From Okamejei kenojei (taxonomy: Eukaryota): a DNA stretch of 64,000 bases. Made by a program: the position numbers and the translations under genes. The notes below the pieces were generated by a model. That model had not been told where the DNA came from and searched no databases. It was given only the letters and a program-made list of their open reading frames with translations. The first letter of the stretch is position 1. Every line of letters begins with the position of its first letter. This document shows positions 43,355-63,557 of this stretch, piece by piece. The stretch is taken from positions 10,106,001-10,170,000 of the forward strand of contig CM069174.1 in assembly GCA_035221665.1 (NCBI GenBank), read 5' to 3'.

Positions 43355-43426
43355 TCATCTCATGCTGAGCTGTGCAAATCCAATGAGTTTGGTTTCGTCT
43401 GGGCTGTAACCCTCACAGCCAGAGAC
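43355..43426 (-). CDS. STK39-like: SPAK/OSR1-family kinase last coding exon with stop
   Basis: VSGCEGYSPDETKLIGFAQLSMR* matches the family C-terminus KLIGFAQLS; ttctcctcgCAG acceptor; TGA at 43355-43357. Confidence 0.94.
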   Translation of the reverse strand, partial: VSGCEGYSPDETKLIGFAQLSMR

Positions 43427-44000
43427 CTGCGAGGAGAACGAGGGGCGGAGAGTGAGCTTCTGGCTGACATTCCCTTCCACCCCGTTACTGAGCAGTCAAT
43501 GTGCACAACTAGATAGCAAGTGTGGAGAGAGGGGGTGGTTTGGCTACAATGGTCCCGAGTGTAGAGTTAGAATGGCGAATCCATCAAATCCATAAACTCC
43601 ATGAAACCGAGAGCAACCTTGGGATTTCCACAGGTACGTCCTTGAATGCGGAAATCTCAAGGTTCCTGTCACTGACTCGGCTCCGCACTCCACAGTTTGG
43701 CCTGAGTCTGAAGAATTAGTGGAATTTAGTCCTGCAGTTAAATACTCTGACAAGGTTGGGCTTTGATGCCGAGATCTAAGTGAGTTTTTAGTGTCACACT
43801 GAACTGTAATTAGTGGTTAACATACACTGACTGCTCTTACATTTTGTCTGTTGCTTGTAATTTCCTTAGATAAACATTTCAAAATATAATCTTTACAAAT
43901 TTAAATTCTTTGATATTTCCAAAATGTATTTTCATCCAAGGCGTTTGCCTCGACCTTTGCGCTTGGGTTTGCTGCTTGTGAGAACTCTTTCACATGCTTA

Positions 44001-44304
44001 TGCCCCTGTCCCACTTCGGAAACCTGAACGGAAACCTCTGGAGACGTAGAAAACCTGAACGGAAACCTCTGGAGATTTTGCGCCCCACCCAAGGTTTCCG
44101 TGCGGTTCCCGGTGGTTTTTGTCCTCCGGCAACCACCTTCAACTAGCATCGCAACCGGCTTTGACAAAAAAATTACTAATTTTTAAAACGGAAACCACTT
44201 TCGACCATTAGGGAGACTGACAAAAACCTCCGGGAACCGCACGGAAACCTTGGGTGGGGCGCAAAATCTCCAGAGGTTTCCGTTCAGGTTTCCTAAGTGG
44301 GACA
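44001..44304. mobile_element. MITE, PIF/Harbinger-like, with long inverted arms
   Basis: tgcccctgtcccactt...aagtgggaca with TTA on both sides; arms of about 100 bp are mutually inverted; same family as 55720-55934. Confidence 0.8.
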
Positions 44305-45877
44305 TTATTTGCCCAGCCAGCCTGACGACACCATGATTGTCGAGTGCCCGGCCATCCTCTTGTAGAGGTGCCTGGCGGCAGCAGAGGCTGGTTCAAGGGG
44401 AGAGTCCGTGCCCGAGAGACCAGGTCAGCCTCCTTTGAACTCTGCCGTGAGGTGATGCCGCTTGCTGCTTAGTACAAAGTCGGGGTTGCATTTTCTTTAA
44501 AGAACCAGGTCACAATTCTAAGGTGGGGTGGATGTGGATGGGTCAGTGTGAAGAACTGAACTTAGTTTTTACATCATTCATACCAGGGGCTTTCCAACAA
44601 GGTTGCTTCTCTGGCTCTGCAATGTGATCCACAATGATCACACACTGGGCGTTATCCCGAGAGAAAAGCCATTCAAACCACCTCCGTTCAGGATCGTTTT
44701 TAATCTTGCTTTCGAGAATGGATATATTTTACAACTTTGAACACTTGAAGCCGAGCACATTTTACCCTCATGATTCTGGATAGAATTCTGTCACGCATTG
44801 AAAGTTTGGTAGTTAAAATTGGCAAGAGGTGAACGAACCTGTGAAAGGGTGGGAGAGGGGTCAGGCAGTGTGATATATCCCAATTTAACCATGAGTCTGA
44901 GTCTGTCACATCCAGATCCCACTCTGCTCCTTTCCACTGATGCCAACTACCCCATGGCCTCAGAGATTGTGAAGCTGTGTTGCCTTGAACTTTAAGATGG
45001 TTCTGAGGGTACCCAGTCATGCCAATTTTGACCCTTCCAAGTAGTCACGAGCTCCTCATTCCTTGAGTCTGGGCTGAACCCAAAACCTGAAGCCATTGCA
45101 TTAATAATACAAAATACTCGGTGCTCAGGGTATGCGTTGGTTCCTCCAACCCAGCATCGAGATTTTGTTTCAAGGAGACCTGATGTACAGTCCTGCTAGG
45201 CTTTCTATCAATGCACAGGCCAGTAAGACAATAATACATCCAGCCAAGCAACATCCTGAGTGTAGGAAATAATACCACCAACCACCATAAAATGGAGCAG
45301 GAGGAATTCAAGAGGTGATCGATTGAAAGGGAATTCTGAAGGTAGCAAGAGGGGAAGGATTTGGCGAGTGGGTTCTAGAGGAAAGAGATGAAATGCAAAT
45401 CAGTAGTTGGTGAGGAGAGGGCAGGAAGGTGGAGCGGTGTTGGTACAAAGTCAGACGAGTGTGACAAACAGGAGCTGAACAAAGTTGTGGACGTGAGAGA
45501 CCGGACCAATGTCCGTACCTCTCTTGCTAATCCTGGAATAGCAACAGACATCTGGGTACAAAATTGTTTTTGATAACTGGGCCACAGTCAGAGGGCGATT
45601 GGGAAGCATCCCCTAGAATTTGCAGTTCAAGTCAGTGTTCTGTGAAATAATCCAATCAGCTCTTTTGGGAACTATAAAGTGAACCATGCCTGGGTCCATG
45701 TACTTGGCCACTCAATATTACAGCGTGATTCATTCTCCAGTTTTAAAAACATCTGTCTGGCAAAAGTTGGGTAAAGAACAGCTGTTGGCAATCCATGAGA
45801 TTCTGCAAAACTGGTCGAAGAAACACTTTAAAATCTTTGAGAAGTTCCGAGATAGAGGTTTGTTTTGGTCTCCTTAC

Positions 45878-45942
45878 CAGTCTAAACGTGAGTGTCCTGT
45901 TCGAATGAGGGTCATCGATTAGTCTCTGCAGGTTGTTAGCCA
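45878..45942 (-). CDS. STK39-like: SPAK/OSR1-family kinase exon, CCT domain (65 nt)
   Basis: (V)ANNLQRLIDDPHSNRTLTFRL; phase 1 to 0; tttcttTAG acceptor, GTAAGG donor. Confidence 0.92.
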
Positions 45943-60669: not shown

Positions 60670-60811
60670 CTGTGTATCTGTCCATTCCTATGCAGATAAT
60701 CCAAGCCCTCCAGCACCTCTTTGAGAACGGTTGCAATCACTGGTTCATCCAGCACGCCAGTCCTGTGTTCATTCCTGCTCACTGTCTTCCTGATTATGTC
60801 CAGCATAGAGC
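60670..60811 (-). CDS. STK39-like: SPAK/OSR1-family kinase exon (142 nt)
   Basis: [48 protein letters not shown]; phase 1 to 2; canonical AG/GT. Confidence 0.95.
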
Positions 60812-61099
60812 CTGAAAGGGAAGCAAAGCACTGTCCACCTTGCATCCAAGCAGAAGTCTTGCCCTCTCTTTTTACTATTACACCATGCACCCCCATGACC
60901 CCCACCACTCCTGTGGTCTTTCTCTCACCTTCTTCGGGAGGTTATGAAGAGAAGGCAAGAGAAGAGAATAGGGTTGAGAGGGAAAGATAGATAAGCCACG
61001 ATTGAATGGCGGAGTAGACTCGATGGGCCGAATGGTCTAATTCTGCTCCTACAACTTATCCTACAACTTATGAACATGTCAATGTGTTGGTGTAATGGG

Positions 61100-61570
61100 C
61101 AGAGAGATGGCAGGTGGAGTTTGATCCTGATAAATGAGAGCTGATGCATTTTGGGAGTACTATAGAGGCCATGAATGGTTGGGTCCCAGGGGGTATGAAA
61201 GAACAGAGCGACTTTTGTGTACACGTCAATAGATCTTTGAAGGAGACAGCACAGCTAGGTAAGGTGGTTAAGAAGGCATGCGGAATGATGGCCTTCTTTA
61301 GTTGGGGCATTGAATAAAAGAGCAGAGAGGTTATTCTCCAACTGTATAAAACAATAGTTAAACATCAGCTGGAGTACTGCATGCAGGTCTGTTCACTGCA
61401 CTTGAAGAAAGATGGGCAGCGCTTAAGAGGGTGCAGAGGAGATTCACTAGGATGTTGCCCAGGATGGTGTTTCAGTTATGAGGAGAGACTGGAAAGATTG
61501 AGTCTATTTTTCCTGAGGAAGTCAAGAGGAGAGATGATGGCGGTATATAAGATTGAGGGGTATAGACAGA
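61100..61570 (+). mobile_element. Decayed CR1-clade LINE fragment
   Basis: tggcaggtggagtttgatcctgataaatg...ctggagtactgcatgcag...ttcagttatgaggagagactggaaag. Confidence 0.75.
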
Positions 61571-63448
61571 GCAGACTACAGGAAACCTCTCCCCACAGGA
61601 CCAGAAAACCGGGTTCAATCCTGACCACGGGCTCGGTCAGGGTGAAGTTTCCAAGTTCTCACTGACCGCACGGGATTCCTCCGGATTCTCCAGTTTCCTC
61701 CCACATCCCAAAGACATGCGGGTTTGAAGACTAACTGGTCTCTGTAAATTGCCTCTAGTGTGTAGTGTGTGGTTGAAAAAGTGGGACGGAAGAAGGGTCT
61801 CAACCCCAAACGTCACCTATTCCTTTTCACCAGAGATGCTGCCAGACCCGCTGAGTTAATCCAGCTTTTTGTGTCTATCTTCAGTGTAAGCCGGCACCTG
61901 CAGTTCCTTCCTACACTCCTATTCACTCTCTTACACTTGCTCTCCTTTCAACCCAACCAGCCTTACACTATCGCCTCATTCTGCAGTTCCTCCTCCCCCC
62001 AACCTCTCTCACCGAAACATTGACTGCACTTTAAAAAAAAATGAAACTGAGCAATTAGCACTGGCCAATACTACATTCTCAAACATAAAACGCTGTTTAG
62101 AACCAGGCAGGCTCTTTTTGTGGAGCAAGAAACAGATTTGAGCTACTGGCAGAACCGCTTTTGGCTAATCTGTTGGGGTTGTGTCTCAACAAGCAGCAGA
62201 TGCTCCTGGAATCTTGCCCAGATGCCAAGCCTTTTAAATGCGAACAGGAGACAGAGTCAAGGGTTGGGTTTTTTTCTCATTATTTAATTTTTTTTTTCAG
62301 TTTCTGGTTGTCGTTTGCAATTACCATTTTTAGAATACATAATTACCATTACATACGCAGACATCTTAAACCTCACCTCTAGAATTCAGCTTTTTGGACC
62401 ATGTTTGGCACAATGCGGTGGTCTGAAGTTTGAGTGCTCCAGATGATACCCAAACTGGGCTTGGTGAAGAGGTTATTAGTGAGTACGCACTACAGAATAG
62501 CACTGTCAATGATACCTCCATCACGGTGCTGATGACTGACAGAAGACAGATTCCAGCGAATTACTGCCCATTGTACATCCTACGTCTGGGCAACGGGACA
62601 CCCTGGGCAATGTTCCAGATTGTAGGGTAGATGCCATTGTTGTGATTGTACTGGAACAGCTTGGTTAGAGGCACAGCTAGTTCAAGAGTTCAGGCCCTCA
62701 GTGCTGCAGATGCGAGGTTGCCTCAACCTATAACCTTTGCTGTATCCAGTGCTGATAGGATACGAATGTTGCTCTGACCGACCATCCACACACATGCATG
62801 CAGCCTCGAGCAGGTATAACTGGATGCTCGACACAAATTGGGAGCAAGGAACCTTGCTGAGGCTGTGCATTCCCTTCCTATCTGTGGAACCCAGCTAGCT
62901 CTTCGTAGATATCAGACAAACCTGGGACCTCCCTTTCCTGTAACTCTCAAGAGAACACTCAGTAGTTGCTCACTCAGCCATGGAGGGAAACGAGACAAAT
63001 CTTGTTGATGTTTTGCTCCAGATTAATACCATCTTAAATTTCCCTGATACATGAATAATCTTTAATGCTTGCCCACACTTCACCAAACTCTCTGATGCAA
63101 TGTGGCGGCCAAGTGTCAGGTTATTGACAGCAGTTATAGTGTCAGGTGCTGCAGTTGCAGGGAGAAGAACAGCAGATATTGTTAAAGAGAGTACAAGCCT
63201 CTCATTGTAAACAGTACAATTGCAATGGCCATTTTCAGAGCTTTAGAAAGAGTTTGTACATTACATCCTATTTAACAAATTCACCTTTGGGCAAGGAATT
63301 TACTTAGAGTATACACTGGCCACTGAGTCAATTCTGGCCATCTTCCATTTGTCCCAATTTCAATCCTGTCCCTTCAGCTTGAACACAAAGCAATAATTAT
63401 TAAAGAAAGATGAATGTTGTCTTTGTATGCTGCGTGACGTTGTCTTAC

Positions 63449-63557
63449 CTCCACTCAGCAGCTTCATGACCAGCCAGAGTTCATCCTTCACAACAAATGA
63501 GGTGAAGTAGGCCACGACATTGGGATGATTGCACTGACTCATGGCTTGAATCTCTTT
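63449..63557 (-). CDS. STK39-like: SPAK/OSR1-family kinase exon (equivalent to exon 3; alphaC to hinge)
   Basis: [36 protein letters not shown]. 109 nt, CAG acceptor, GTAAG donor, phase 0 to 1. Upstream exons lie outside the window. Confidence 0.95.

Follow-up and report, generated by a model that had tools for sequence, protein, structure and literature searches.

A SPAK/OSR1-family kinase gene of the skate Okamejei kenojei, a probable ohnologue of STK39 retained in cartilaginous fishes

The window analyzed here, a 64,000-nucleotide stretch of the Okamejei kenojei genome (contig CM069174.1, referred to below as C44, positions 10106001-10170000), contains most of a minus-strand gene that encodes a protein kinase of the SPAK/OSR1 family. 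The complete gene consists of 17 exons with a coding length of 1473 nt and specifies a protein of 490 amino acids; all 16 introns are bounded by GT and AG, and there are no internal stop codons. Fifteen of the exons are located in the window, where they run in consistent phase from position 63557 down to the stop codon at 43355, and two are located outside of it: exon 1 (C44:10184113-10184185, minus strand), with the start of the spliced frame, and exon 2 (C44:10171280-10171392, minus strand). An earlier note, made from the sequence of the window alone, listed 14 exons, and all of them were recovered at the same limits, each preceded by AG and followed by GT where spliced, in matching phase and free of stops; its count was incomplete in that a 69-nt cassette exon (51822-51754), which is contained in RefSeq isoforms of relatives, had been overlooked, and the 5' exons it lacked proved to be intact and complete the 490-residue frame. 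With a profile of bony-vertebrate proteins the kinase exons score up to 81.5 bits, compared to 3.2 bits for the best of three shuffles, and thus the exon matches are not due to chance. A pseudogene is ruled out by the intact frame and by conservation over 21 species entries.

All exons in the window are read from the minus strand. Exons 3 (63449..63557) and 4 (60670..60811) encode parts of the kinase domain, exon 5 (59629..59684) carries the catalytic loop, exon 6 (58118..58227) carries the DFG motif and the T-loop with the WNK site (T186), and exons 7 (55441..55542) and 8 (54507..54640) are followed by exon 9 (53459..53507), where the kinase domain ends. Exon 10 (52564..52629) precedes the cassette exon, exon 11 (51754..51822), which has a counterpart in STK39 models and none in OXSR1 models. 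The S-motif (S349) and the WEW motif are encoded by exon 12 (49508..49630); exon 13 (48006..48073) encodes the linker and the start of the CCT domain, exons 14 (47627..47679), 15 (46961..47029) and 16 (45878..45942) continue the CCT, and the coding part of exon 17, including the stop, occupies 43355..43426. In some skate RefSeq isoforms intron 16 is read through (window 45877-45730), giving an alternative C-terminus, which is probably a prediction artefact because the frame differs among skates. Skate models also contain an in-frame upstream ATG that adds 55 residues (C44:10184350-10184186), the ATG common to other species being at C44:10184185. In exon 2, the glycine-rich loop of skates has Cys in place of Ser; the 11 fetched proteins with this residue all come from skates.

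The Pkinase domain was found with E 2e-63 on the Amblyraja radiata model, from which the skate protein differs at 2 of 490 residues, and the VAIK, HRD, DFG and APE catalytic motifs are all kept in the window protein; the best PDB matches of the kinase are SPAK and OSR1, and the ESM Atlas returned generic OSR1 clusters only. The CCT domain was recognized as OSR1_C with E 1e-18 and aligns with the SPAK and OSR1 CCT structures with E ~1e-36, and its strand-loop-helix holding the motif pocket is largely identical to that of SPAK/OSR1 as outlined in 10.1101/2024.06.26.600905. The T-loop 13-mer is identical to the human phospho-epitope; T186 aligns to human T233/T185 and S349 to S373/S325 (numbering as in PMC3242505), the serine of the S-motif being retained within an altered flank. 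Since the catalytic, WNK-site and CCT motifs are retained, the kinase likely works as SPAK does: the CCT would dock RFxV motifs of WNKs and of substrates, WNK would phosphorylate T186, which is the activating event, and S349, and the kinase would in turn phosphorylate NKCC/NCC/KCC cotransporters, as the conserved motifs and the known pathway lead one to expect. Its biochemistry is probably ordinary.

On the plus strand of the window, a LIM-domain exon (31664..31798, limits approximate), whose best PDB match is EPLIN, identifies LIMA1, the last coding exon of which (32877..33896, start approximate) ends ~9.5 kb from the kinase stop, so that the two genes are convergent, as the earlier note had it. 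On the other side, 18 kb past the kinase ATG, exon 1 of a CERS5/6-type gene begins a head-to-head arrangement at C44:10202530, where such a gene had been predicted. Human STK39 shares its locus with B3GALT1 and CERS6 (PMC4474914), and CERS5 and CERS6 are closest paralogues, with human CERS5 on chromosome 12 (PMC6315813). In the skate, the CERS gene on C44 and one on the sequence C7 are a mutual closest pair (67% and 84%, compared to 38-58% for three others). With the orientation that we take the human STK39 slot to have, the kinase gene therefore has paralogous neighbors in like order and orientation, LIMA1 convergent and CERS head-to-head, as befits an ohnologue from the two rounds of vertebrate whole-genome duplication (2R), and the earlier proposal of a distinct SPAK/OSR1 lineage in a LIMA1-CERS5 slot mirroring the STK39 slot is borne out by this linkage and by the tree described below.

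The whole genome assembly (2.76 Gb) was searched for further members of the family. Three exon queries, for which all candidates were scored (11/11, 16/16 and 2/2), detected only the locus on C44 and one on C4, and a full-length bird STK39 query gave exon matches of at least 67% identity only at the same two loci (scored: 75 of 486 candidates). On C4, each exon of the gene corresponds to one of skate OXSR1 models, and the gene is convergent with a Xin-repeat gene ~75 kb away; no LIM exon homologous to LIMA1 was found in the C4 stretch examined (to 131.55 Mb). Outside of the two kinases, an OSR1_C search of the genome detected four loci, C19:44313269, C31:16361060, C16:58994773 and C1028:9821, which are probably CCT-like exons of WNKs.

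The STK39 slot itself is empty. Genes of the B3GALT1 and CERS6 types are 83 kb apart on C7 (93.217-93.300 Mb) with zero N between them, and this interval contains no trace of a kinase (best profile score 2.3 bits, compared to 87.8 bits at C4). XIRP2 is on C7 as well, at 61.47 Mb, 32 Mb from the CERS partner at 93.2-93.3 Mb, which means that the block was rearranged in the skate; an STK39 hidden near XIRP2 was ruled out, as the 100 kb below that gene are also empty of kinase traces (best 5.6 bits). The skate XIRP2 retains LIM exons homologous to those of LIMA1. The kinase gene is not located between B3GALT1 and CERS6, where an STK39 orthologue would be expected, but on C44, and since there are only two family loci and the STK39 slot is empty, it replaces STK39 and adds nothing to it. 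The skate thus has one SPAK-type kinase gene and OXSR1, without the usual STK39. Of the separate STK39 and OXSR1 that the earlier note expected in this genome only OXSR1 is present, and its idea of a third, extra kinase branch does not hold for this assembly.

The gene is not restricted to this skate. Homologue searches, from which the best 120 of 789, 2245 and 1479 matches were taken together with cluster look-ups, revealed orthologues in at least 21 species entries, which comprise skates and rays as well as sharks and the chimaera Callorhinchus. By best BLAST match, 417 of 418 proteins could be classed, and the 91 named chondrichthyan proteins are divided into 51 of this clade, 39 of OXSR1 and a single one scored as STK39 that has OXSR1 motifs; the latter (P0221) was therefore rejected as a chimaera STK39, leaving no STK39-type protein among the 91 chondrichthyan proteins fetched from the matches listed. 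Conversely, no bony vertebrate protein falls inside the clade among the matches listed. An unnamed fragment (P0355), considered as a non-chondrichthyan member, was rejected too: its scores are nearly tied, and by inspection it looks invertebrate-like. In a search with the C-terminal part, 11 chondrichthyan rows have 68-100% identity and the 109 others have at most 53% among the best 120 of a longer list, and this drop makes a bony-vertebrate member unlikely in the database searched. Automatic names of the orthologues are SPAK-like, OSR1-like, SPAK or hypothetical, so the '-like' annotation suspected earlier is present; the Callorhinchus copy is named SPAK by NCBI, without '-like'.

In the main tree, built from 26 rows hand-picked from 56, the chondrichthyan clade (100/100), bony STK39 (99/95) and OXSR1 (99/97) are all recovered. 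The gene is not an OXSR1 orthologue, for the OXSR1 clade leaves it out and the skate OXSR1 is on C4. A quick tree of 56 rows groups the clade with STK39 with a Shimodaira-Hasegawa-like approximate likelihood ratio (SH-aLRT) value of 92. On a fixed topology, the stem of bony STK39 (0.074) is longer than that of bony OXSR1 (0.018), with 97 of 100 bootstraps agreeing. The stem of the clade is 0.314 compared to 0.051 for chondrichthyan OXSR1. Such lengths would suit a split before the jawed-vertebrate crown. The skate branch within the kinase clade is longer than the remaining batoid branches.

Eleven shared sites side with STK39 and five with OXSR1, which, together with the weakly placed sister position (75/79) next to bony STK39, agrees with the leaning toward SPAK reported earlier. 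R140 and H351 are common to the clade and STK39 and are seen in none of nine outgroup rows; several other STK39-shared sites (for example P12, V76 and E478) match the outgroups and hence are ancestral. Proteins with the cassette exon number 32 of 48 in the clade, compared to 30 of 194 for the STK39 type and 0 of 106 for the OXSR1 type. The identity of the kinase is 74.3% to STK39 and 73.6% to OXSR1, and there are 25 clade-specific residues at positions where STK39 and OXSR1 agree. All motifs by which the earlier note set the protein apart from SPAK and OSR1 are indeed present, and four of the eight characterize the clade in its entirety: YFTSF, G[DN]DGSI, GTAPY and ANNLQ[RK]L are found in 11 of 11 rows (GTAPY also in 5 of 9 invertebrate rows), while NEPP is a batoid motif (5/11 rows), FLAGGG and KVD are confined to skates (2/11) and ILFG is present in 2/11.

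Taken together, the gene is an intact SPAK/OSR1-family member and likely the ohnologue of STK39 that cartilaginous fishes retained. The skate has lost STK39 itself, and the kinase is predicted to act in a relay from WNK to cation-chloride cotransporters. An ancestral block in which a kinase gene was convergent with a LIM/Xin gene and followed by a head-to-head CERS gene would have been duplicated, with the first round splitting off OXSR1 (convergent with XIRP1 in the skate) and the second giving a HoxD-chromosome copy, STK39, and a HoxC-chromosome copy, the skate kinase gene. Bony vertebrates would then have lost the HoxC-chromosome copy and cartilaginous fishes the HoxD-chromosome one. Hox C is grouped with D, with an alpha/beta split near 508 million years ago, in PMC10972751, and beta segments evolve faster, with 19 ohnologues retained in chondrichthyans only, according to PMC10115646. 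Of the findings that the earlier note named as refuting its proposal, one was made, since the gene is the only SPAK-type copy in the genome; contrary to the others, it falls outside the crown STK39 and is linked to CERS.

Several points weigh against the reading of the gene as the twin of STK39. The main tree has no lamprey, hagfish or amphioxus rows, its sister grouping with bony STK39 is the weak node mentioned above, and approximately unbiased (AU) tests reject neither a clade+OXSR1 nor an STK39+OXSR1 grouping (p 0.166 each). If the gene were simply an orthologue, it would likewise be expected as sister to bony STK39, and the long STK39 stem could be due to nothing more than variation in rate. 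The twin reading leans on position because reciprocal loss and orthology look alike in a gene tree. The positional argument has its own difficulties: in comparison to human CERS6, exon 1 favors the C7 gene (99.5 bits versus 91.6 for C44) and the TLC exon favors the C44 gene (60.9 bits versus 57.1 for C7), and since the two exons gave opposite answers, the names CERS5 and CERS6 rest on the neighbors. Human LIMA1 presumably adjoins CERS5 with no kinase between them. STK39 loss is demonstrated in one genome and is less sure in other chondrichthyans, where it rests on the best 120 of 789, 2245 and 1479 matches, and no species with both copies was found among the proteins fetched. Finally, SI Table 3 of PMC10115646 pairs LER40 with LER2 and not LER7, and therefore OXSR1 would be the 2R sister.

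These points are distributed among the alternatives. The gene could be STK39 proper, which in the ancestor of chondrichthyans reached the LIMA1-CERS5 slot through transposition or through a post-2R exchange between sub-genomes and has been fast-evolving since then. The sister position to bony STK39, the cassette exon shared with it, the presence of a single SPAK-type gene in the genome, the plain SPAK name given to the Callorhinchus copy and the lack of any species seen with both copies all agree with this, and a sub-genome exchange would fit the slot; nevertheless, a random move would have to hit a paralogous slot in the paralogous orientation, and the STK39 stem exceeds the matching OXSR1 stem in nearly every bootstrap, so that we regard relocation as unlikely. 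It is about as improbable that the gene is an ohnologue whose 2R sister is OXSR1, or an earlier branch, with its likeness to STK39 being ancestral. This would be in line with the AU tests, the LER40-LER2 pairing, the outgroup-like states of P12, V76 and E478 and the nearly equal identities, but the CERS neighbor pairs with the CERS gene at the STK39 slot, R140 and H351 unite the clade with STK39 to the exclusion of the outgroups, OXSR1 is without the cassette exon, and Hox C is grouped with D in the source cited above. Three elasmobranch kinases (STK39, OXSR1 and the skate gene) forming an extra signaling branch are very improbable: a third lineage does exist at the level of jawed vertebrates, but the two loci and the empty, gap-free STK39 slot refute this for the present assembly, and no STK39-type protein is among the 91 named chondrichthyan proteins in the matches listed.

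All eight Nramp matches in the genome are on C44 (6.94-7.02 Mb), in two tandem exon sets, with no other Nramp locus found, and Lee et al. (10.1101/2025.02.26.637739) assign an nramp2-like gene to the X of every one of 13 species. The Narcine orthologue of the kinase gene is on a sequence of 103,180,129 bp, the size published there for the chromosome that contains the ancestral X block, and the orthologue-bearing sequences of Pristis (16.41 Mb), Carcharodon (28.81 Mb) and Mobula hypostoma (73.08 Mb) correspond to the ends of the published X size ranges. C44 is likely homologous to the elasmobranch X chromosome and the kinase gene is likely X-linked. It is located ~1.2 Mb from one end of C44; shark pseudoautosomal regions (PARs) are 0.3-2 Mb long and none was seen in thorny skate, according to the same source, and a search for the Canopy family, a PAR marker, gave zero matches on C44. 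Chromosome-level dosage compensation is absent for elasmobranch X genes, stingray kidney included (PMC12318234), and males and females would therefore be expected to differ in a kinase of salt handling, which can be tested. There is also a broader proposal that we consider tentative and, as a whole, rather doubtful: chondrichthyans would have no SPAK, the paralogue lost by bony vertebrates, with its 25 fixed residues, would run WNK salt signaling instead, and the elasmobranch gene would be X-linked outside the PAR and uncompensated, with a female dose about twice that of the male in rectal gland, gill and kidney. The second vertebrate Nramp paralogue, which we take to be SLC11A1, may be lost in the skate, where a single Nramp locus was found.

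Compared with known systems, STK39/SPAK of bony vertebrates (PDB 5D9H, 7O86) resembles the skate gene in the order of its domains, the T-loop, the His-containing S-motif, the CCT, an optional exon in the linker and the CERS neighbor, at 74% identity. The skate gene differs in being on another chromosome, in a LIMA1-CERS5-type and probably X-homologous block, in having no Pro/Ala-rich N-terminal box and a short linker before the CCT, and in being of a type found in chondrichthyans only, with its own set of clade-specific residues. OXSR1/OSR1 (PDB 2VWI, 2V3S) shares the family, the motifs, the short N-terminus and a convergent LIM/Xin-family neighbor at 71-74% identity; in contrast, a separate OXSR1 is present in the skate, on C4, and OXSR1 models are without the cassette exon. 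RefSeq and UniRef models of sharks and rays called 'STE20/SPS1-related proline-alanine-rich protein kinase-like' and 'OSR1-like' are orthologues of the skate gene; these names are automatic, vary among isoforms of one gene and are silent on paralogy. Differentially retained ohnologues, a case of hidden paralogy of which the 19 genes of PMC10115646 that chondrichthyans retained and bony fishes lost are examples, represent the same class of event; unlike in those cases, the loss at the SPAK-type gene appears reciprocal, which hides it from gene trees.

No description of the SPAK-type paralogy was found in the literature listings searched, with subscription journals outside the coverage, and no paper joining stk39 with Callorhinchus was found. 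Neither stk39 nor oxsr1 is mentioned in the searched supplements of PMC12318234, PMC11406177, PMC10115646 and PMC8455134 (for the last, 12 of 24 files), and nothing further was found in the accessible parts of PMC7606576 and PMC10927551. The gene may figure in the set of 29 X-conserved genes that Lee et al. describe or in the list of 68 cases given by Marletaz et al. The reciprocal loss and the probable X linkage appear to be undescribed, while the kinase family and the class of event are already known. The shark rectal gland is a classic model for how phosphorylation regulates NKCC1, and the 'SPAK' of this organ would, if our reading is true, be a different gene from human SPAK. Orthology calls would be corrected too, because the gene tree alone, or the NCBI name of the chimaera protein, reads the gene as STK39. 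The case would also be a clean reciprocal loss of ohnologues, with survival of the copy that evolves fast at the expense of its counterpart. The known event class and the probably ordinary biochemistry limit its significance.

Rfam gave no match within the window. A CpG-rich segment (C44:10194001-10195000) between exon 1 of the kinase gene and exon 1 of the CERS gene could represent a promoter or a first exon that is non-coding. An element bounded by long inverted arms is present twice in the window, at 44310-44020 and 55930-55730, and by eye resembles a miniature inverted-repeat transposable element.

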